64,000 nt of DNA from Escherichia coli (GCF_003790525.1 NZ_CP033635.1), one strand, 5' to 3'. Shown: positions 26,317 to 39,684, counted from the first letter of the stretch. Program-made: numbers and translations. Notes: generated from the sequence alone by a model not told the origin.

Positions 26317-27789
26317 ATGGTACCTGTGGTCGCGCTTGTCGGGCGCCCTAACGTAGGAAAATCCACGTTATTTAACCGTCTAACTCGCACCCGAGATGCG
26401 CTGGTTGCGGATTTCCCGGGTCTGACTCGTGACCGTAAGTACGGTCGTGCGGAAATTGAAGGCCGTGAGTTTATCTGCATTGATACCGGCGGGATTGATG
26501 GCACAGAAGACGGTGTAGAAACCCGCATGGCGGAACAGTCGCTGCTGGCGATTGAAGAAGCGGACGTCGTACTGTTTATGGTGGATGCGCGCGCGGGCCT
26601 GATGCCGGCGGATGAAGCGATTGCTAAACATCTGCGCTCCCGTGAAAAACCGACCTTCCTGGTGGCAAACAAAACTGACGGTCTGGATCCCGATCAGGCA
26701 GTGGTTGATTTCTACTCGCTTGGTTTAGGTGAAATCTACCCGATCGCCGCGTCTCACGGTCGTGGCGTATTAAGTCTGCTGGAGCACGTGCTGCTGCCGT
26801 GGATGGAAGATCTCGCACCGCAAGAAGAAGTCGACGAAGACGCCGAATACTGGGCGCAATTTGAAGCGGAAGAGAACGGCGAAGAAGAAGAGGAAGACGA
26901 CTTCGACCCGCAAAGTCTGCCGATCAAACTGGCGATTGTGGGTCGTCCGAACGTCGGTAAGTCTACACTCACTAACCGTATTCTTGGTGAAGAGCGCGTT
27001 GTTGTTTACGACATGCCTGGCACGACGCGTGACAGTATCTACATTCCAATGGAACGCGACGGACGTGAGTATGTGCTCATTGACACCGCTGGCGTACGTA
27101 AACGCGGCAAAATCACCGATGCGGTAGAGAAGTTCTCGGTAATCAAAACGTTGCAGGCCATTGAAGATGCCAACGTGGTGATGTTGGTGATTGATGCGCG
27201 TGAAGGTATTTCCGATCAGGATCTCTCCTTGCTGGGCTTTATTCTCAATAGTGGGCGCTCACTTGTGATTGTAGTGAACAAGTGGGACGGCCTGAGCCAG
27301 GAAGTGAAAGAGCAGGTGAAAGAGACGCTGGACTTCCGTCTGGGCTTTATCGATTTTGCTCGTGTGCACTTTATCTCTGCCTTGCACGGCAGTGGTGTTG
27401 GTAACTTGTTTGAATCAGTACGTGAAGCGTATGACAGCTCCACCCGTCGTGTGGGGACCTCTATGCTGACGCGCATCATGACGATGGCTGTTGAAGATCA
27501 CCAACCGCCGCTGGTACGCGGTCGTCGAGTGAAGCTGAAATATGCCCACGCCGGGGGTTATAACCCGCCGATTGTGGTGATTCACGGTAATCAGGTGAAA
27601 GACCTGCCTGATTCCTACAAGCGTTACCTGATGAACTACTTCCGCAAATCGCTGGACGTAATGGGATCGCCGATTCGTATTCAGTTCAAAGAAGGGGAAA
27701 ACCCGTATGCGAACAAGCGTAATACCCTGACGCCGACTCAGATGCGCAAGCGTAAGCGTCTGATGAAGCACATCAAGAAAAGTAAGTAA
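26317..27789 (+). CDS. der: GTPase Der (EngA)
   Basis: Start at [16 protein letters not shown] (ATG 26317), 490 aa, two GTPase domains (GRPNVGKS twice). Confidence 0.93.
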
Positions 27790-27851
27790 TCACTTATCTG
27801 GTTTCCCTTTCCACACGGAGAGGGAAACCGAATAACACGCGAGGAGTATTT

Positions 27852-28067
27852 ATGGCACTCAACTGTCCAACCTGCAAAACCCCTCTCGAACGCAATGGCG
27901 GGACTGCTCACTGTGCAACTTGTGCCAAAGATTTCACCATTCAGGCTCTTTGTCCTGACTGCCACCAGCCATTGCAGGTATTAAAAGCATGCGGTGCGGT
28001 GGATTATTTCTGCCAATATGGGCACGGTTTAATTTCTAAAACACGCGTTGAATTTGTTATTGTGTAA
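27852..28067 (+). CDS. yfgJ: YfgJ, small zinc-ribbon protein
   Basis: 71-aa ORF with two CxxC pairs (CPTC, CATC, CPDC). Confidence 0.8.
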   Translation: MALNCPTCKTPLERNGGTAHCATCAKDFTIQALCPDCHQPLQVLKACGAVDYFCQYGHGLISKTRVEFVIV

Positions 28068-28276
28068 TATCATTTAAATATATGATTTTATCATTCATAT
28101 TTATAATATGGATGATTATGCCATTTTTGTATTAGTTGAATTACTAATATGAGTGGAAAAAATCACTTATTTAAAAAATAATGATATATTTATCCTTTCT
28201 GGCATGCCTTTCTGAATAATCAGGGATACAATATTAAAGCTTATTTTTGACTTTATCATTGTCACAGGAAAAGTGC

Positions 28277-30451
28277 ATGCTGCGATGGACACGCTGTATT
28301 ATGCTAACATTTATCTCTGGGGCTGCTTTTGCGGCTCCAGAGATAAATGTTGAGCATAAAGAATCATTACCTGATTTAGGTAGTCAGGCCGCACAACAAG
28401 AAGAACAAACCAACAAGGGGAAATCGCTAAAAGAGCGTGGTGCCGATTACGTCATTAACTCCGCTACGCAAGGGTTTGAAAACCTGACACCCGAGGCGCT
28501 GGAGTCCCAGGCCAGAAGCTATCTGCAAAGTCAAATTACCTCTACGACACAATCTTATATTGAGGATACACTCTCCCCCTACGGTAAGGTTCGAACGAAT
28601 CTTTCTCTTGGCCAGGGCGGCGATCTGGATGGCAGTTCCATCGACTATTTTGTTCCCTGGTATGATAATCAAACTACTGTTTATTTCAGCCAATTTTCTG
28701 CACAACGAAAAGAAGATCGTACGATCGGGAATATTGGGCTTGGTGTAAGACATAATTTTGATAAATGGTTGTTGGGTGGAAATATATTTTATGATTATGA
28801 TTTTACCCGTGGGCATCGCCGTTTAGGTTTAGGTGTCGAAGCGTGGACTGATTATTTAAAATTCTCTGGCAACTATTATCACCCGCTTTCTGACTGGAAA
28901 GACTCCGAAGATTTCGATTTTTATGAGGAGCGTCCTGCGCGCGGCTGGGATATTCGCGCCGAAGCCTGGCTTCCCGCTTATCCGCAGCTTGGTGGTAAAA
29001 TTGTTTTCGAACAGTATTACGGTAATGAAGTCGCGCTTTTTGGCACTGATAATCTGGAGAAAGATCCCTTCGCTGTCACGCTGGGTGTGAAATACCAGCC
29101 CGTTCCGCTCATTGCTGTCGGTACAGATTTCAAAGCTGGCACTGGCGATAATACCGATCTTTCTGTTAACGCAACGCTTAATTATCAGTTTGGCGTCCCG
29201 CTCAAAGACCAGCTTGATCCTGACAAAGTGAGCGCTGCTCACTCGCTTATGGGCAGCCGTCATGACTTTGTTGAACGTAACAACTTTATTGTTCTGGAAT
29301 ACAAAGAAAAAGATCCCCTCGACGTCACTTTGTGGCTGAAAGCCGACGCCACGAATGAACATCCCGAGTGCGTGATTAAAGATACGCCTGAAGAAGCTAT
29401 CGGGCTGGAAAAATGTAAATGGACCATTAACGCGCTCATTAACCATCACTACAAAATCGTCGCTGCCTCCTGGCAGGCGAAAAACAATGCTGCACGTACG
29501 CTGGTGATGCCGGTTATCAAAGAAAACACGCTTACCGAAGGTAACAACAACCACTGGAATCTGGTGCTGCCTGCCTGGCAGTACAGTTCTGATAAAGCCG
29601 AACAAGAAAAACTCAATACCTGGCGGGTTCGTCTGGCGCTGGAAGATGAAAAAGGTAATCGACAGAATTCCGGCGTGGTGGAAATCACCGTTCAGCAGGA
29701 TCGCAAAATTGAGCTCATCGTTAACAACATCGCCGATGTACCAGATGAGAACAATCACAGTCATGAAGCCAGCGCACAGGCCGATGGTGTAGATGGTGTG
29801 GTGATGGATCTCGATATTACTGATAGCTTTGGCGACAACACTGACCGCAACGGTAATGTCTTGCCGCAGGATAATCTCAACCCGCAGTTGTTTGACGCCA
29901 ACGATAAAAAAGTGACGCTGACGAATAAACCCTGCACTACCGAGACTCCCTGTGTCTTTATCGCCAAACAAGATAAAGAAAAGGGGACCGTTACGCTCTC
30001 CAGTACATTGCCTGGCACCTTCCGTTGGAAGGCGAAAGCCGCTCCCTATGATGACAGTAACTATGTTGACGTAACGTTCCTGGGTTCTGACATCGGCGGG
30101 CTGAATGCCTTTATCTATCGTGTTGGTGCGGCTAAGCCCGTGAATCTTATCGGCAATAAAGAGCCGTTGCCTCTCAATAGCAGCTATCGCTTTGTGTTGT
30201 GGCGTGACGCTAACAAAGACGGCGTGTTCCAGCTATCAGAGAAATTCACTGAAGAGGAGATGAAACAGTATGACTATCAGTGGGAATTCACGGGACATAG
30301 CGTGAATGGCAATACCGGTGCGCAAGCCAATACCACTAACGCCGATATAGAGATCCCGGCAACGAACAAGGACGCGGCAACGAAGTTTAGTGCCCAGGTA
30401 ACCGATGGCGTGCAGGGATACGGTTTGCAGGTCAATTACAGCAAGAAATAG
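28277..30451 (+). CDS. sinH: Intimin/invasin-like inverse autotransporter (SinH-like)
   Basis: Signal peptide MLRWTRCIMLTFISGAAFA; intimin-type beta-barrel motifs (KWLLGGNIFYDYDF, ERPARGWDIRAEAWLPAYPQLGG); AGGA RBS before ATG 28277. Confidence 0.78.
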   Translation: MLRWTRCIMLTFISGAAFAAPEINVEHKESLPDLGSQAAQQEEQTNKGKSLKERGADYVINSATQGFENLTPEALESQARSYLQSQITSTTQSYIEDTLSPYGKVRTNLSLGQGGDLDGSSIDYFVPWYDNQTTVYFSQFSAQRKEDRTIGNIGLGVRHNFDKWLLGGNIFYDYDFTRGHRRLGLGVEAWTDYLKFSGNYYHPLSDWKDSEDFDFYEERPARGWDIRAEAWLPAYPQLGGKIVFEQYYGNEVALFGTDNLEKDPFAVTLGVKYQPVPLIAVGTDFKAGTGDNTDLSVNATLNYQFGVPLKDQLDPDKVSAAHSLMGSRHDFVERNNFIVLEYKEKDPLDVTLWLKADATNEHPECVIKDTPEEAIGLEKCKWTINALINHHYKIVAASWQAKNNAARTLVMPVIKENTLTEGNNNHWNLVLPAWQYSSDKAEQEKLNTWRVRLALEDEKGNRQNSGVVEITVQQDRKIELIVNNIADVPDENNHSHEASAQADGVDGVVMDLDITDSFGDNTDRNGNVLPQDNLNPQLFDANDKKVTLTNKPCTTETPCVFIAKQDKEKGTVTLSSTLPGTFRWKAKAAPYDDSNYVDVTFLGSDIGGLNAFIYRVGAAKPVNLIGNKEPLPLNSSYRFVLWRDANKDGVFQLSEKFTEEEMKQYDYQWEFTGHSVNGNTGAQANTTNADIEIPATNKDAATKFSAQVTDGVQGYGLQVNYSKK

Positions 30452-30506
30452 GATCAGCGCCATGGCTGATCGGGCCACCGCTGAATGTTAACCAAGGAGA
30501 GTGTTT

Positions 30507-31499
30507 ATGAAACCTCATATGAAACGTGGCCTGACAAGAGTCGCGCTGGCACTGATGCTGGCTGGATACTGTGCCGTGCCAGCCGCTATGGCGGAAGATG
30601 CCGCCTGGGTAGCCAGTGGGACGACCGCTGAATTCGAAGGGACCATACCCTGGCTTTATCGCGAGGGTGGGAATGCCACGATTAACTCGGATGATGCGGA
30701 TCACATCAAAGTAACGTCTGATGGTAAAGGTACTCGTCCTTCAGGTAGCGAGACGGATAAACGCCTTTACTCAGGAGATACCATCACGTTGGGGTGGGAT
30801 ATCGGCGATACCGAAGGGGATATCGACGATGGTCCAGACGGTATTGATGCGAAAACGACAGCCACTATCAAATGGTACAGTTACAGCGATAATGCGGGTG
30901 GCGGTAAAACGGAGCTGACCGCAGCGGCAGGCAAGACGAGTTATAAACTCACTGATGACGAACGTGGGCGTTATATCGGTGTTGAAATCCAGCCCATCAC
31001 CCAGACCGGTAATCCTTTCCAGGGAACATCGCTGACTCTGCTGGATATTTCAACGGCCAGCGGTGGCGGCAGCGATACGGATAATGTTGATCCTGGCCCG
31101 GTTGTGAACCAGAACCTGAAAGTTGCCATCTTCGAGAAAGGCACCAGTACCAACCTTATCGGTGGTAATACAGCCATTGCGCTTAACAAAACGTATGTGG
31201 CCAAACTGTACTCGGATGAAAACCAGAATGGTAAGTACGATGCGGGTACGGATGTGGACGTTACCGCTAACTACGACTTTGCGTGGGTCTTTAACGGTAA
31301 CAGTAAACAACTTGCGGCGGCGGGCGGTATTGCCAACGCCAGCTTCGATAACAATGACATTGTTATTCCGCAAACTAACGAACAAGCAAGAACCAGCCTT
31401 AACGGTAGTGACCGTAATGGTAAGACCGGCCTTGCAATCCCGGCAAACGGCGACGGCGTTCAGGGCTATACGCTGTCTATCATTTACAAACACCACTAA
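30507..31499 (+). CDS. sinI: Secreted protein, SinI-like
   Basis: Signal peptide MKPHMKRGLTRVALALMLAGYCAVPAAMA; C-terminal DGVQGY motif shared with the sinH-like product. Confidence 0.55.
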   Translation: MKPHMKRGLTRVALALMLAGYCAVPAAMAEDAAWVASGTTAEFEGTIPWLYREGGNATINSDDADHIKVTSDGKGTRPSGSETDKRLYSGDTITLGWDIGDTEGDIDDGPDGIDAKTTATIKWYSYSDNAGGGKTELTAAAGKTSYKLTDDERGRYIGVEIQPITQTGNPFQGTSLTLLDISTASGGGSDTDNVDPGPVVNQNLKVAIFEKGTSTNLIGGNTAIALNKTYVAKLYSDENQNGKYDAGTDVDVTANYDFAWVFNGNSKQLAAAGGIANASFDNNDIVIPQTNEQARTSLNGSDRNGKTGLAIPANGDGVQGYTLSIIYKHH

Positions 31500-31608
31500 T
31501 GCGCACAACAGCATTCCCGTATGGGAATGCTGTTTTCCGCCTGTTTTGCTTAGCGACGCGTTAAGCAAAACGGGTTGACGTTTTGTTTATCATGCTGGAG
31601 TTTTCTAC

Positions 31609-34600
31609 ATGTCGGTATGTCTGAAACCAGGAAAAATCATTGTGCTTCTGGGCATGTTGGCAGCCTTTATGCTGTCTGACTTTGCACGGGCAGGAGTGGA
31701 ATGGCAGACATATCCTGGTTCTACAGGCGAGTTTAACGGTACAGTTCCTATTGCCGATAGCGCTAGCGTACCCGTTTATCAGGGAAGCGTTCAGCTTGAT
31801 CCTGCTGCATCTCATGATGTGGCGTTTTCTGCTAAACCGAATGAATTTAGCGTTGACGATGACGCTGCTAACCTGATAGTCGCTAATCCTCAGGACAGTG
31901 AAGGCGACCAGTTTTCCACACCACCTGCGCTGCGCTGGGAAAACCAGACGCCGCCGACCGTCAGTCTGGTGTGGGCGGATGCCGCCACGCCGGATACGCC
32001 GCTCAACCCGCAGCCCATCGCCAACCGCAGCTTTTGCGCGCAAGGTCTGGCCGGGCGTTCGCTGGTGGCCTGGCCGCAGATAGATACACAACAAACCATT
32101 CCACTGCTTTACCTGCTGACCTCGACCGGTTATCCCTATGAGGGGACGGTGGCGCTGGCTGAACAGAAAGTGACGCTGAACATCGCGCCCGCACAGGGCG
32201 ATTTAATTTCGGTGAGCGCCAGTGGTTATAACGAAACGATCGCGGCGGCAAAAACCACCGTTGGTGGCACTATCACGCTGACCGTCACCACCAAAGATTG
32301 TCAGGGCAACGTCGCGGGTAATATTCCGTTTATTATCAAACGTAAAGATGCCCAAAACCGTCAGGGCGCGGTGAATAATACCGCGCCGGTGGTGCTGGGG
32401 AGTACCGAGTTAACGACGACGGCAACCGAGTATCGTGGCACATCGGATGCCAACGGTACGGCAACCATCACGGTGACCCAACCTAACGGCCCCGGCGTCA
32501 AAACGCCGCTGGTGGCGAGTATTTCCGGCATTGCGCAAACCAGCGAAACGGCGGTGATTTTTACCGTACTTACCAGCCCGGACGTGGCGCAGGCCACGAT
32601 GTGGGGCCATATGGCGGAAACGGTTGAGGCACACGGCTACACGTTCAGCAGGCCAAAACTGGCGGCGGAAGTCAGCAATGAAAATGCCACGGTCGTCGAT
32701 CACAACGAAACCTGGTCCACTTTCACCTGGAGCGGGGCAGACAGCCATTGCACCGTGCTGCCGGGCATGCGCCATTTCGGCGCACTGGCGACGGTGATTC
32801 CCTCCACGGTACAGACTGTCCTTGGCTGGCCGATGCAGGATGATTATTACTGGACATCGCTGGCGGGCACTACCGGGCAGCACCATGCAGCGGATGTCTC
32901 TAACCGTGCTGAAGCGCAAAAGCCGGATAGCACCACGTTTCTTGTAAGCTGCGTGGACAAACCCGCGCCTGACGTCGAACCGAAAATCGTCCTTACGCCA
33001 GAAAACTATGATGATACGGCACAGGCGATGAAAGCGAAGGTGGGTGAGGATGCCACGATGCGTCTGACGATCACCGACAATAAAAACAACGATCAACCGC
33101 TGGCGTATTATTACTTCTCGCTGCATCTGGATGACGGCGTTAACCGTAAGAATCAAACCGACTCCGCCTGGGAAGCCCATCCGGTGCAGATTACTGGCGG
33201 CAGTAATTTTCGCCAGGTCGACGCACATACCTATGAAGGCATGACCGACGCCAACGGCCAGGCTTCGCTCACCCTGAGCCAGCCCGGCGGCGCGGGGGTG
33301 AAAACCCATATCACGGCGAAAATGCGCAGCGATTTTAACGCCACGGATGCCAAAGATGTGATTTTTACCGTAATCACCAGCCCGGACAGCGACAAAGCGC
33401 GGATGTGGGGCCATATGCGCGGCATTATTGAGTCCGGCAGTCTGTATAAACGCCCGTTGCTGGCGGATGAAACCGAGCATGAACTGGGAACAGTGCGGGA
33501 AAACAACGAAGACTGGGCGTTGTACGATCAAAACACCAGTATGCAGGCGGAATGCGGGGTGGGTCATATACCGCGTCAGAGCTCACTGGAAAGCCTGTTT
33601 TCAGCCCATCCCGGTAACGCGATTGGCACTGAGTATGGCTGGCCTACCGCACAACAGAGCTACCTAAGCGCGGTGGAGCAAGAAACGCATTCATCGGTGA
33701 ATCTGGGGAACGGGAGCGTCGACAGCTATTCCGGCTTTAAGCAGAATTACCTCTCCTGTTCGGGTAATGAGATGGTAGCGAATGTTGAAGTCAGCACCGA
33801 TCATGATGTGTCTGTTGGCACCCAAGCGCAAGCCAAAGTGGGTGACACCATCGTAATGACCGTGCGTACGATTAACGCGCTAAATAATTCCCCGGTACCC
33901 TTTAGCGCATTCACCATTACCAAAGGTATGGGATATAACCGAGCGGGACAGGTGAGCGGGTTTGATGACCCGAGTAGCGGCTCAATCACGATGGATAACT
34001 CGCAATATGGTACATCACAGCCATCGATGGTTTATGCGGGAACAACCGATGTCCGGGGCGTGGCGACGGTCGAGATTAAGCAACCACAGGGCGTCGGGCT
34101 AAAAACGGTGCTGAGCGTAACACCGGTAAATTCCTACCTGCCGAATACCGTTAACTACAGCGTTATTTTTACTACCCCAACCAGCCCGGACGTTTCCGGC
34201 GCGCAGATGTGGGGCCATATGGATGAAACGATTACCGTTGATTCATCAACCTTTACCCGGCCTAGGCTGGCGGCGGAAATCGCCAGCCCGGACGGAACCC
34301 TGACTGAAAATAACGAAATCTGGGCGCGCGTGAGCCAGGCCAATACGTCCAGTACCAGCAAAGGCGGCTGCGGCACCAATATGCTGCCGCGTCGCTCCCA
34401 GCTAAGCGCGTTGTATAGCGCCAACAGTGGTAATGCAGTGCAAACGACGCACGGCTGGCCAACGCAGCGTCAGCCCTACTGGAGCAGCTCTCCGGCGGAT
34501 GTGACGCCGCACTTTTTCACGATAGCGCTGAACGATGGCGCACAAGCTATCGGCGGCGATACGCCGGTTTACGTCAGTTGCCTGACGACGGCGAACAAAC

Positions 34601-37600
34601 CTGCCAGCAGCATTACGCTGGAGGTGGTTGATAAAGCGCAATGGAATGCCGGGAATAACGCGGCAACGCTGAAAAAAGGCGAAACGCTACAGGTTAAGGT
34701 GACGGTAAAAGATGCACAGGGCAACGCGTTAGCGGATATGCCATTTACCCTCAGTCGCGGTGATGGCTATACCCGTAGCGGCGAAAAACATATTGCCGGT
34801 AGCGGCGATGCGCTGGTGGCGCCGGTGGTGGTCAATGGCGGGCTGGCCGATGAAACAACGTTGAATGACACCGCAACGGTGTATACCGCCATGACCGGCA
34901 GTGACGGCAGCAAAATTCTTAATATTACCCGTCCGGATACCCACGGCACCAAAACGGCGCTGACGGCAACGCTTTACTCCGATGCGACGAAAAAAGACAG
35001 CCTGGACACGATCTTTACGGTGGTTACCAGCCCGGATAGCAGCCAGGCGAAAATGTGGGGGCATATGCCGGAAACGGTGACGGCTGAGGACGGTACGGTC
35101 TTTAAACGCCCGCGGTTACTGAAGGAACTGAGCAGTCAGACTGGGCGAACATCAACGCTTGAAGACAACGAAAACTGGGCGTTGTTTAACATTAATTATG
35201 CGAGCTCTTCCACGACGTATAGTGGCTGTGGAACCAACTATATTCCGACTCAGGCCGGTCTGACGTCACTGTTTGCTAATAATGCGGGCAACACCATGAA
35301 AACCGTGCAGGGCTGGCCGGTGGCAACGCGCTATTTGTCCAACACGTCCGACAATGGCAGCATGGAGCAGCGTAACTACAAGGCGGTCGATCTCAGCAAT
35401 GGCACGAGTGCGGCAGTGTCATCAACGGCGCTGCAACTGCTGACCTGTCAGACTACACCGGTAACCACGGTGAGCCAAATCCTGCTGGAAGCGGCAGATC
35501 CGGCGACGCTGGATACCACCTATAACGTGGTAAAAGCGAAAAAAGGCGAAGAATCCGTGGTGCGCGTCACCACCAAAGATGCACAAGGCAACCTGGTGGG
35601 CAATACGGCATTTATCCTGACGCGTGCCAACAGCGTGAGTCGGGCTAATGCATCAGCGACGATGAGCGTGGGCTCGTTGACGGTGACGGATGCCTGGGGC
35701 AATACGCGAAATAATTTCCAGTCGACAAGTGAAACCATTTACGGCGTGACCGGTGCCGACGGGTCAACGACATTGACCCTGAAACAGGATAACAGTACCG
35801 GGTTAAGAACCGATCTCACGGCAAAACTGGATACGTCCAGCAGCGTCAAGGCAACGCTACCGGTGGTCTTTACCGTCGTGACCAGCCCGGATTCGCCAAA
35901 AGCGAATTTTTGGGGACATATGGCCGAAACGGTGGCGGCCTCCGATGGTTCAGTCTATAAACGCCCACTGTTGCTGGCAGAGCTGGCCAACACTGGCGGG
36001 CGACAAATCAGTTCAGAGAACGGGGAAAGCTGGGTACGATTCACCTGGAATCAGTCGACAGATCCTTCTGTAAGCGGCTGCGGCGTTGCGTATATGCCAA
36101 CGTTGGCAGGCCTGCAAGCGTTGTATGACGCTAATAGTGGTAATGCAATGAGTACGGTACAGGGATGGCCGGTAAAAGCGACCTATCTCACCAATACCCC
36201 AAGTGACACGCAAACGGGGAGCCGTTACTACAATGTGGTGCAACTGGATTCTGGCGCAGCCTCGCAAATCACGACGAACACGGGTGTACTGCAAACCTGC
36301 CGTACAACGCCGTTGACGGCTGCCAGCCAGATTACGCTGGAGGCCGCGGATCCTGCGCAATTTGTCAGCATTGACAGCACGCTTAGCGCTGTCAAAGTGC
36401 AGAAAGGCGATAGCGTGCCGATCCGCATTTCGACTAAAGATGCGCAGGGCAATTTCGTCGGCAATACGCCGTTTGCCCTGAAACACGCGAACTCGATCAA
36501 TCGTCAAAATGTGTCGTCATCGCAGAAAGTGTCGGTCACGACGGAGGTGGGTACGACGGTGGATACCAGTGCAACAACCACCCTGTATGGCGTAACCGGG
36601 CCAGACGGAACCACCACGATGACGCTCCGACAGGATGCGTCCACCGGGTTAAGAACCGACTTTTATGCCCTGTTGAACGATACCGGCGTGTCGTCGGACA
36701 CCTTGCCGGTGATCTTTACCGTCATCACCAGCCCGGATACGCCGCTGGCGGCCAACTGGGGCCATATGGCGGAAACCTTTACCAGTAGCGAAGGCGTCAC
36801 CTTCAAGCGGCCTTCCCTCAAAGCTGAACTCTCTGGCGGTACGGCCATAACGGTCAATAATGAAGTCTGGTCGCGCCTGACAGCGGCGGAGAAAGTGGAT
36901 GCCAGCAAGGCCGGGTGTGATGAGACGTATCAACCGCTGGTGAATGACATGCAGGGGTTGTATGCGGATTACCCTAACGGCCAGTTAGGATCGGTGCTCG
37001 GCTTGCCGACGTCTGCCGGGTATTGGTGGGCCTACGACATGATGATGGTTTCTGGCAACTGGACTAATCAGGCATTTTCACCTGTTAATGGTCAGTTGAT
37101 GCAGGCATCGTCCAGCTATACGGCGATCGTGATGTGTCTGGTAGAACCACATACGGAAGCAGCCACAATAGAGCTTACTTCAACGGCGCAGGACGCAGCA
37201 AAATCGGCCAGTAATGGTGGACGACCGAGCGCCGTAGCGAAGAAAGGCGAGACGATTCCGTTGACGGTGACCGTGCGTGATAGCGCCGGGAACCCGATGC
37301 CATATGCTGAGTTTACCCTCACGCGTGAAACGACGCTGGATCGCTCGAAAGCAACCGTTAACACGAGTGCGGACGACCTTACCGTAACGGCATTGGTACC
37401 CGCGAATACAAATAGTGTGTTGGCAGCAAGTGGAGCAAAACTGATCGGCACGACGGGCAGCGATGGCAAAGCGACCTTTGAGGTGAGTCAGAATGCGACG
37501 ACCGGGCTGGCGACGCCGTTAACCGTGACGCTGGCGCGTGATACGACGAAAGCCGCCACGCTGGATGTTATCTATACGGTGATCACCAGCCCGGATTCGC

Positions 37601-39684
37601 CGAGTGCGAAATTCTGGGGGCATATGCCGGACACCTTTACCAGCTCGACGGGCGTCACCTTCAAACGACCGCTGCTGAAAGCAGAAACCAGCTCAGGCTC
37701 ATCGATTAGCTCTAACGGCGAAGTTTGGTCATATATGAGCAACGCGCAAAATTTAACATCGACAGATTGCCCGCTCGAAAATCAACCGCGCAGTAATGAG
37801 CTGTTGGATTTGTATAGTGATCACCCGAACGGCACGCTAATGACCGACCTGGGGTTACCCGTATATGCAGGTAACTGGTGGGCCTATGATATGGTCATGC
37901 TGAGTGGAACGTCGTGGACTTATCAACTCATCAGCCTGAAAGACGGAACCATTACGCAGAAGGGGACAACCAGTGCGTTGATGCTTTGCCTGGCACAGCC
38001 GCATCCGGCCGGCGTCAGCGTAACATTGACGTCATCCGCACAGGATGACGCCAGAACCACCAGCAATGGCGGCCGTCCCAGCGCGTCAGCGAAAAAAGGT
38101 AACTCAATACCGATTGTGGTAACGGTAAAAGATCGTGATGGCAACCCGTTGGCGGGCGAAGCGGTGACGCTCAAACGTGATTCAGCGTTGAGCCGTTCAG
38201 GAACAATCGTGGGGACGCCAGCGAATGAAATAAAGTTGACGGAACTGACGCCCGTGTCGGCGACATTCCCGCTGGTTTCAAATGGTACACAATGGCTTGG
38301 TTTCACCGGTAGCGATGGTACGGCGACATTCAATGTTGAACAGCCTGATACTGTCGGCCTGGCAATCCCCTTTAACGCCATCCTGGCCCGTGACACGGCA
38401 AAGGTATCTACTCTGGATCTGATTTTTACCGTCCTCACCAGCCCGGATGCCGCATTAGCAACTTACTGGGGCCATATGCCGGATACCGTCACGGCGGAAA
38501 ACGGTGCTGTCTTTGAGCGCCCTAAACTGTGGAAAGAGCTGCCGTCGACATCCGGGGTAAGTCAGATAACGAATAGCAATGAAGCCTGGCCAGTGTTTAA
38601 CGCAACGCAGAGGGCTGACAGCAATCTCAGCCCTTGTGAAGCGGCGCGTCGACCATTGAGCGATGATTTAGAAGCGCTCTATACACGTTATCCAGGAAAC
38701 ACGATTACCGCGCAAATTGGCTGGCCTACGCAGTATGCATGGTGGGCGGTGGATAACTGGGAAGGGGGCAGTAATCCGCAGGCCGTCAGCCTGGTAAATG
38801 GTTCGAGAGGCCAATATAATCCCGCTCATCAGGCCTGCCTGGTTAACCCGCGTGCGAGCGTTTCCAGCGTCACGCTGACATCAACGGCGCTGGATGACGC
38901 CACACAGGCGGCGACGGTGAAAAAAGGCGACGCCGCGCCCATTGTCGTTACCGTAAAAGACAGCGCCGGGAAGCCGGTGCCGAATATCGCTTTTATCCTA
39001 AAACGCGGTGAGGCCGTGCCGCGTAACAGCGGGGCGACGCTGTATGGCGATGTGGATGCGATGGACGATTTGACTGTGCAACCTTCATCCGGTGCGGCAG
39101 TCACGTTGGCTGACAGTGGAAATACCATCGACGGAGTCACGGGAGCGGACGGTACGGCAAGCTTTACCGTTCGTCAGGATAATACGCCAGGATATAAAAC
39201 GCCGTTGACGGTGACGCTGACGGATAACGCCACCATAACGGCGACGCTGGACACGATTTTCACCGTGCCGACCAGCCCGAATGTCGCCACGGCGTATTTC
39301 TGGGGTCATATGGCGGATACCGCCACGGTAAGTGGCAAGACGCTGCATCGCCCGCTATTAAAATCGGAGTTGCCGTCAGGCGCTACCGCAGCAGCAACGC
39401 CTGATGTAAATAATGAAACCTGGGCACTGGCGCATGTTATGGATTCCTCTAAATGGGATGTCGCGCAGCAGTGTGGCAGTATGAATAACGTGCCGAGCAG
39501 TGCCGAATTACAAACATTACACTCCGGCTTTAGCACATTGGGATGGCCGTCCTCGATAAGCTTCCCGTATTTATCTACTGATAAGGCTGGGTCGTTCTAT
39601 TGTGGTGTTGATGAAGGCTCTGGCAGTCTCAACTGTGGCATTCAGCCTGCGAAAACGCCGGGGTTTGCAACCTGCTTCCAGTAA
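31609..39684 (+). CDS. ratA: Giant repeat-containing surface protein, RatA-like (2691 aa)
   Basis: Single ORF with signal peptide and nine ~270-aa repeats each carrying VIFTVxTSPD...WGHM; position next to sinI matches Salmonella ratA. Confidence 0.7.
32280..39684 (+). repeat. Nine tandem in-frame coding repeats of about 0.80-0.86 kb inside the ratA-like gene
   Basis: ACCAGCCCGGA(C/T) recurs at about 32572, 33380, 34183, 35028, 35885, 36731, 37585, 38443, 39271. Confidence 0.8.

Follow-up and report, generated by a model that had tools for sequence, protein, structure and literature searches.

Inverse autotransporters (IATs) that work with separately encoded partners have been described in Salmonella, where the IAT ZirT is accompanied by ZirS and ZirU, Sec-dependent proteins with no beta-barrel, and where an immunoglobulin (Ig)-like domain of a partner resembles the IAT's own passenger (PMC2270342, PMC4943183). 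Secretion of ZirS depends on ZirT (PMC2270342). Here we analysed a 64,000-nucleotide stretch of Escherichia coli DNA (NZ_CP033635.1; hereafter the window) that encodes a similarly composed cluster, sinH-sinI-ratA, with emphasis on its middle gene, sinI. SinI begins, after its signal peptide, with a short peptide motif (hereafter the tag) that it has in common with the giant adhesins of the Rat family, and it ends in a domain that is paralogous to the distal domain of the IAT SinH.

The cluster resembles ZirT/ZirS/ZirU (ZirTSU) in that SinH has an IAT barrel, SinI carries a Sec signal peptide and is barrel-less, and an Ig-like domain is common to SinI and SinH. It differs in its third member, a multi-repeat adhesin of up to ~3000 amino acids (aa), and in that the ZirT dependence of ZirS export has been demonstrated, whereas for SinI and RatA a SinH-dependent export is one of the proposed roles. 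ZirS and ZirU were compared with SinI by their published descriptions, and the SinI profile retrieved no chain from the PDB sequences at E <= 10. A ZirTSU-like secretion or docking set is a published hypothesis for this trio (PMC4943183, PMC6714894): SinI and Rat-like proteins were proposed as SinH substrates by Heinz 2016 (PMC4943183), and SinH-dependent secretion or surface display of a partner was left open for this locus by Goh 2019 (PMC6714894).

Classical two-partner secretion (TPS) follows the same logic, with an N-terminal determinant after the signal peptide on diverse exoproteins whose genes lie next to that of an outer-membrane partner. There, however, the transporter is of the Omp85/POTRA type and the determinant is a ~250-residue beta-helical TPS domain, whereas here we find an IAT barrel (PF11924) and a ~20-residue tag without NPNL/NPNGI motifs. 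A classical TpsA/TpsB pair was rejected for this locus, as SinH matches IAT_beta only and neither SinI nor RatA(1-1000) has a match to the TPS domain (haemagglutination activity domain). ZirS is also without a TPS domain, per Gal-Mor 2008. We likewise rejected chaperone-usher donor-strand complementation: there are no chaperone or usher genes from der to xseA, the SinI sandwiches are predicted to be complete (predicted local distance difference test, pLDDT, > 90), and the tag is modelled as coil, not strand. Compared with intimin, invasin and InvE, each of which is a single chain, the cluster is a split arrangement in which the barrel and a short stalk (SinH) are separated from the adhesive domains (RatA or another third protein), with SinI in between.

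This locus, sinH-sinI-ratA, is already known as the ila cluster of E. coli and corresponds to the CS54 island of Salmonella (PMC12928451); the island also has ratB and shdA, both of which the E. coli cluster lacks. It is 100% identical to the locus of E. coli SMS-3-5 over 4 kb, and IatB/EcSMS35_2660, studied by Goh et al. 2019, is exactly this locus (PMC6714894). Co-transcription of sinH and sinI has been reported (PMC12525524), and attenuation of uropathogenic E. coli (UPEC) upon ila gene deletions is likewise on record (PMC12928451). The locus itself, the SinI-SinH domain homology and the translocator-plus-substrates hypothesis are already published, and SinI is a curated NCBIfam family. What appears to be undescribed is the N-terminal tag common to SinI and Rat, the remainder of our analysis restating published knowledge of the locus. 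We found no description of the shared motif in the literature searched, although an earlier one may exist. Heinz 2016 termed the Rat N-terminal region 'highly divergent' (PMC4943183), and Tsai 2010 has no content on SinI or Rat.

A peptide motif at the N termini of SinI and Rat proteins

The preliminary description had pointed to short likenesses at both ends of SinI, to RatA at the N terminus and to SinH at the C terminus, and the four strings that it quoted are found where it placed them in the three proteins (Table 1). The N-terminal likeness holds at the level of the two families and does not hold for the single pair. BLASTP of SinI against RatA gave E 0.18 for this region, in an alignment that takes in the signal peptides, and 11-mers with at least six identities are common between the two proteins: ungapped 11-mer pairs with 6/11 identities numbered 53 in the real comparison and 14-35 in shuffles. 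Taken as a single pair, the 11-mer match is not beyond chance.

A different result was obtained for the families. Profiles of the N-terminal regions, built with the signal peptides removed, were aligned by hhalign with a score of 54.4 and E 4.7e-8; among 30 column shuffles used as control, the best score was 20.4 and all E values were at least 0.025. The first 24 columns alone gave E 6.7e-10, profiles from which these columns had been deleted gave nothing significant (E 0.018), and larger N-region profiles gave E 1.4e-5. By these profile comparisons, the N-terminal match is real and significant at the family level.

The motif reads W...T-x4-G-T-x-P over ~20-25 residues and follows the signal peptide in nearly every protein of the SinI and Rat families. 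In SinI, G45, T46 and P48 are fully or almost fully conserved, both across 25 family members and across a larger set of 68. All 26 Rat-type N termini have W4, G16 and P19, and T11 and T17 are each found in at least 90% of them; T11, G16, T17 and P19 are conserved at the same mature numbering in both families. The family consensuses, NLKxGxWQxxSxxTGxIQGTVPW for SinI and (N/V)LKGGxWQxxxxSTDAINGTVP for Rat, are far more alike than are the two proteins of the window. At the nucleotide level, the cores of the sinI and ratA motifs share 16/33 positions, and all six shared residues are written in different codons, which indicates that selection acts on the protein and, together with the low nucleotide identity, argues against a recent exchange of DNA between the two genes. 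Together, the alignments show a short peptide, fixed in position, to be under strong purifying selection.

In our assessment, chance and composition are very improbable sources of the N-terminal likeness, and so is a recent gene conversion of which it would be a by-product at the 5' ends of sinI and ratA. The weak pairwise score and the abundance of comparable 11-mers speak for chance; the shuffled-profile controls rule pure chance out, and the same residues are conserved at the same mature positions in 68 SinI-type and 26 Rat-type sequences, with the motif present in 24/24 complete loci. Gene conversion is ruled out by the nucleotide identity and the differing codons.

A C-terminal domain common to SinI and SinH

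The C-terminal likeness between SinI and SinH is also real and beyond chance, although the short motif singled out in the preliminary description proved to be the end of a complete domain. SinI residues 204-327 align with the last ~115 residues of SinH at 31% identity over 128 aa (BLASTP, E 2e-10), and a match with 8/12 identities at the C terminus occurs once in the real SinI-SinH pair and in 0 of 10 shuffles. The NCBIfam models cross-match, the SinH tail hitting the SinI model (partner_SinI) with E 1.9e-23 and the SinI tail hitting the SinH model with E 2.2e-11. An hhalign comparison of 68 SinI-family with 22 SinH sequences gave a probability of 99.7% and E 3.6e-27 over 110 columns. Pairwise alignment, which the preliminary description had advised for both ends, would at the N termini wrongly dismiss the family-level match.

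We conclude that the SinI C terminus is a whole domain of ~115 residues, paralogous to the Ig-like domain at the distal end of SinH; the identity between the SinH tip domain and its SinI paralogue is 31-35%. D316, G317, V318, Q319, G320 and L323 of SinI are invariant across the family, and DGVQGY-x-L constitutes the invariant last strand of the shared domain. The part of SinH that matches SinI in hhalign is the tip domain only, and the SinI N-domain has no similarity to the remaining SinH passenger in this comparison (E 0.32). Heinz 2016 (PMC4943183, citing Kingsley 2003) remarks that SinI, which has no barrel, nevertheless resembles the Ig superfamily (IgSF) domains of SinH.

Family assignments agree with this picture of the three proteins. 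SinH matches NCBIfam inverse_SinH with 1482.8 bits (cutoff 999), and SinI matches NF040711 over residues 6-327 with 372.3 bits (cutoff 165; E 2e-111). Pfam identifies no significant domain in SinI; its N-domain, in which D101, D105 and D107 are invariant in the family, gives a weak IG_AIR9 match (E 0.026). RatA has no Pfam match before aa 219, from which point BIg21 and InvE_AD repeats follow; it is without a beta-barrel, and its C terminus matches InvE by sequence (E 4.4e-12). RatA, and with it the short third proteins described below, are by these similarities intimin/invasin-type passengers that lack a barrel.

A Foldseek search of AFDB50 with the SinI model added family members from Yersinia, Budvicia, Regiella, Gilliamella and Frischella, and also retrieved the short third proteins and SinH. 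In UniProt, several SinI homologues from Hafnia, Budvicia, Yersinia, Regiella, Fukatsuia and Zophobihabitans carry the name 'Ornithine carbamoyltransferase', and one homologue in AFDB50 is named 'Intimin-like protein SinH'. Both names look like annotation errors.

Table 1. Genes, domains and motifs of the sinH-sinI-ratA cluster in window coordinates; RefSeq gene order is der, zinc-ribbon gene (yfgJ), sinH, SinI-family gene, adhesin (ratA-like), xseA (opposite strand)
Feature	Position (nt)	Strand	Residues	Remarks
sinH / iatB	28274..30451	+	725 aa	Intimin-like inverse autotransporter; RefSeq 'intimin-like inverse autotransporter SinH'
SinH beta-barrel	28463-29284	+	aa 64-337	Pfam IAT_beta, E 3.8e-105
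SinH distal (tip) beta-sandwich domain	30101..30448	+	aa 610-725	Paralogue of SinI C-domain
DGVQGYGLQVNY	30404-30439	+	SinH aa 711-722	Near end of SinH tip domain
sinI	30507..31499	+	330 aa	RefSeq 'SinI family autotransporter-associated protein'
SinI signal peptide	30507..30593	+	aa 1-29	Ends AMA, before ED; read from sequence
SinI N-terminal peptide motif	30594..30650	+	Mature residues 1-19	EDAAWVASGTTAEFEGTIP
TTAEFEGTIPW	30621-30653	+	SinI aa 39-49	
SinI N-domain	30651..31091	+		Beta-sandwich; DTEGD motif; AIR9-A9-like segment
SinI C-domain	31116..31496	+	aa 204-330	Paralogue of SinH tip domain
DGVQGYTLSIIY	31452-31487	+	SinI aa 316-327	Near end of SinI C-domain
ratA-like	31609..39684	+	2691 aa	Giant anchorless adhesin; RefSeq 'adhesion domain-containing protein'
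RatA signal peptide			aa 1-28	Ends ARA, before G
RatA N-terminal peptide motif	31693..31749	+	Mature residues 1-19	Right after signal peptide
RatA counterpart 11-mer	31720-31752	+	RatA aa 38-48	
RatA N-terminal domain	31750..32262	+		Ahead of first BIg21 repeat; D-S-E-G-D and T-S-T-G-Y-P motifs

Distribution of the cassette and of the tag

In the window, sinI lies immediately downstream of sinH on the same strand. We scanned genomes with the SinI alignment, taking one genome per species, and obtained 25 loci, one of which (L016) is a fragment without sinH. The order SinH-type IAT, SinI-like gene, third gene, on one strand, is kept in 24/24 complete loci, which come from Escherichia, Citrobacter, Pseudocitrobacter, Superficieibacter and Leminorella as well as from Ewingella, Lelliottia, Rahnella, Buttiauxella and Hafnia, and every one of them has the N-terminal motif. 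With three further contexts in which the order sinH, sinI, anchorless adhesin is also kept, the suggestion of the preliminary description that the three proteins form a set is borne out for their genes.

The third gene varies. In Enterobacteriaceae and Leminorella it encodes a Rat-type giant of 1850-3000 aa, and in Ewingella, Lelliottia, Rahnella, Buttiauxella and Hafnia a protein of 360-395 aa. The N-domain of these shorter proteins matches the SinI N-domain (BLASTP E down to 9e-12); a Big_2 domain is also present, and the C terminus is like intimin's receptor-binding fragment (2zqk_A, E 1.7e-4), so that the short third protein would be, in effect, an intimin tip without a barrel. Short third proteins of 360-440 aa (L019 10965-12041, L020-L025, L031 9112-10440) end in ...EG(V/A)AC(L/I)V.

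The cassette is also seen in other settings. In L030, the trio is at a different chromosomal site. L027 (4740-18355, in the E. coli-like genome GCA_022846255.1) has two complete IAT-SinI-Rat trios in tandem from der to xseA, with yfgJ between them, the first with a short Rat protein of 784 aa, and L028 (in GCA_018430465.1, likewise E. coli-like) also has tandem trios, the second IAT being without a gene call. Duplication seems to involve the cassette as a whole. L029 and L017 have a second Rat gene in tandem, again with the tag. In L031, the third gene encodes a 442-aa protein with weak Invasin_D4/Ig_Eae matches, whose leader ends in AVMA and whose mature chain starts with QKNEEHQASTLGKITGTPPVI. 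The tag is thus found on four partner architectures: the SinI type, the giant Rat type, the 360-395-aa Big_2/intimin-like type and the 442-aa Invasin_D4/Ig_Eae type. It follows the signal peptide directly, with one exception: the SinI-like protein of L031 (8001-9026) has an Ala/Ser/Lys-rich spacer of ~50 residues between the two, so that strict adjacency of tag and cleavage site does not hold throughout.

A search of 1.84 billion representative proteins with the N-module profile retrieved only 77 at E <= 0.001. These are SinI-like or Rat-like proteins or fragments thereof, and in most of them the match begins at residue ~26-40, right behind a signal peptide. The four distant tag carriers that we looked up are all (4/4) encoded within SinH-type cassettes. 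In every examined locus, the tag carrier lies downstream of a SinH-type IAT, either directly or behind another Rat gene.

Possible roles of the shared modules

The cassette combines SinH/IatB, an outer-membrane barrel with a short Ig-like stalk, with SinI and an anchorless adhesin of the intimin/invasin type (RatA). SinI itself is predicted to be Sec-exported and to consist of two beta-sandwich domains, holding one module from each type of neighbour. We suggest that the tag may be what the SinH system recognises in its partners, whether to export them in a SinH-dependent way or to dock them on the exposed tip of SinH, in a role comparable to that of the TPS domain in classical TPS. SinI has the tag and, in addition, a copy of the SinH tip domain, and we propose that it could therefore connect anchored SinH with anchorless RatA or else compete between them. 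The reading that we favour, at about even odds, is that the shared modules serve to recognise partners in a ZirT/S/U-like system in which SinI is the connector. A more specific version, which we put forward only tentatively, is that the tag is the missing recognition signal of IAT partner systems and the functional counterpart of the TPS domain, bound in trans by a SinH-type tip, and that SinI is a head-to-tail connector that would couple anchorless intimin-like adhesins (RatA and the short third proteins) to the SinH stalk and give rise to a 'split intimin' at the surface. Any binding, export or bridging would go beyond what is observed directly, namely the homologies, the conservation of residue positions, the shared gene order and the disorder predicted for the RatA tag.

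This disorder is one of the points that favour recognition of the tag. In the model of RatA residues 29-330 (pLDDT 88.4), the tag has a pLDDT of 44 (residues 1-10) and 67 (residues 11-20), and the domains after it exceed 90; high conservation in a peptide predicted to be unstructured would be expected of a linear motif that acts in trans. Variation between lineages is a second point. In the lineage of SMS-3-5 and Pseudocitrobacter, the tags of SinI and of its partner both have 'EF' and both are without 'LKxG'; in other Enterobacteriaceae both have 'xI' with 'NLKxGxWQ', and in a distant group both lack the Trp. Tag identity is 10.2/24 within a genome and 7.8/24 across genomes (permutation p < 1e-4), although this test amounts to about three independent lineages and the permutation p overstates the evidence. 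Variation of the tag in concert between SinI and its co-encoded partner is suggestive, not decisive.

Besides this limit on the lineage test, several observations weigh against a role in recognition. In the AlphaFold2 model of mature SinI (pLDDT 91.4, predicted template modelling score 0.82), which has two soluble beta-sandwich domains, the tag is a coil with a pLDDT of 76 (residues 1-10) and 92 (residues 11-20), packed in cis with high confidence, which fits a structural role. The SinI and RatA predictions are of monomers, and the link between tag and SinH is one that we infer. Biofilm formation mediated by IatB occurs without a SinI-like gene (PMC6714894). SinH's own linker plugs the lumen of the barrel, which is hard to fit to a translocase (the 'Gordian knot' of Heinz 2016, PMC4943183). 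In addition, the 'TGxIxGTxP' core of the tag resembles a signature of He_PIG/cadherin-like Ig repeats, and He_PIG-like repeat proteins with 'TGxIxGTAP' are among the weak matches of the N-module (P0206, P0220, P0228 and P0230).

The packing in cis and the He_PIG-like signature also bear on the main rival to the connector reading. According to this alternative, only ancestry is shared: modules were duplicated and shuffled among neighbouring adhesin genes, and the tag is the first element of a divergent Ig-like domain (He_PIG/A9 type) that is kept for folding, with no part in targeting or docking. We regard it as possible, if somewhat doubtful. Past the tag, the SinI and Rat families have weaker landmarks in the same order, D-x-E-G-D, a Trp and T-x-T-G-x-P, with the D-S-E-G-D and T-S-T-G-Y-P of RatA collinear with the motifs of the SinI N-domain. 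The distance from GTxP to DTEGD is 48 aa in both families outside the SMS-3-5 lineage, and at relaxed mact the hhalign match stretches over 138 collinear columns. These collinear landmarks suggest that the whole ~150-residue N-domains of SinI and Rat, and not the peptide only, are distantly homologous. The short third proteins, moreover, have a complete SinI N-domain (E ~1e-11).

Folding alone would account less readily for the conservation of the tag, which is far better than that of the other parts of the N-region, the profiles failing without it. The tag also opens the mature chain, whereas He_PIG motifs are found 20-30 residues into their domain. Pfam gives no He_PIG match in SinI even at E <= 10, and we rejected assignment to He_PIG or to the dystroglycan-type cadherin-like Ig domains, the likeness being confined to the short signature. 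The disorder predicted for the RatA tag and the location of all checked carriers in SinH-type IAT cassettes likewise speak for recognition of the tag rather than for ancestry only.

A further alternative concerns where SinI acts. SinI might be an accessory factor, either periplasmic or tethered to the outer membrane and in some lineages perhaps a lipoprotein, that aids assembly or export of SinH, RatA or both and is not itself a surface component; we think this unlikely. The leader of SinI, MKPHMKRGLTRVALALMLAGYCAVPAAMA followed by ED, reads as a Sec-type signal peptide in which A29 is invariant in the family and C22 is present in at least 90% of the alignment. This near-invariant Cys inside the signal peptide would suit an accessory lipoprotein, as would the lipobox-like F-[VA]-[GS]-C in the N termini of distant SinI-like homologues (L019-L025), an AFDB neighbour annotated 'Lipoprotein' and the NCBI family name 'autotransporter-associated'; SinI may accordingly be a lipoprotein in some lineages. 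Periplasmic chaperones are often IgSF-folded, per Heinz 2016 (PMC4943183). In the window, however, the Cys closes the sequence LAGYC (aa 18-22, positions 30558-30572), where Tyr at -1 is not canonical for a lipobox, and a standard signal-peptidase I site, A-M-A before E, comes after it. Between Escherichia lineages (the window against L005/L008/L018), SinI is ~44% identical, SinH ~86% and RatA ~54%; the low value for SinI beside that of SinH is typical of exposed proteins, not of housekeeping chaperones. ZirS, taken as an analogue, is a protein secreted into the medium (PMC2270342). The variation in SinH falls mostly in its first ~100 and last ~125 residues, the latter being the tip domain.

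If the connector reading is correct, the tag would matter for how SinI and the giant RatA exit the periplasm or attach to the cell. Partner secretion of the ZirT type has been called an unsolved problem (PMC4943183), and a short, invariant, position-fixed tag common to all partner proteins provides a concrete experimental handle. SinH is pursued as a vaccine antigen against extraintestinal pathogenic E. coli and UPEC, and ila genes affect urinary-tract virulence, according to two reports (PMC12525524, PMC12928451). Should the SinH distal domain be the 'SinH-3' immunogen described in a review, as we assume, SinI might play a part in antibody cross-reactivity or serve as a decoy.

A scan of positions 27700-32000 for promoters and terminators gave counts not above those of shuffles, with no candidate standing out between the three genes, and thus neither supports nor contradicts an operon. 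Beyond the cluster, the rest of the window consists of ordinary core genes. The G+C content over sinH (window 28001-30000) is 0.44, compared with 0.52-0.56 in the flanks and ratA, which would fit a cassette acquired horizontally and mosaic in its history.

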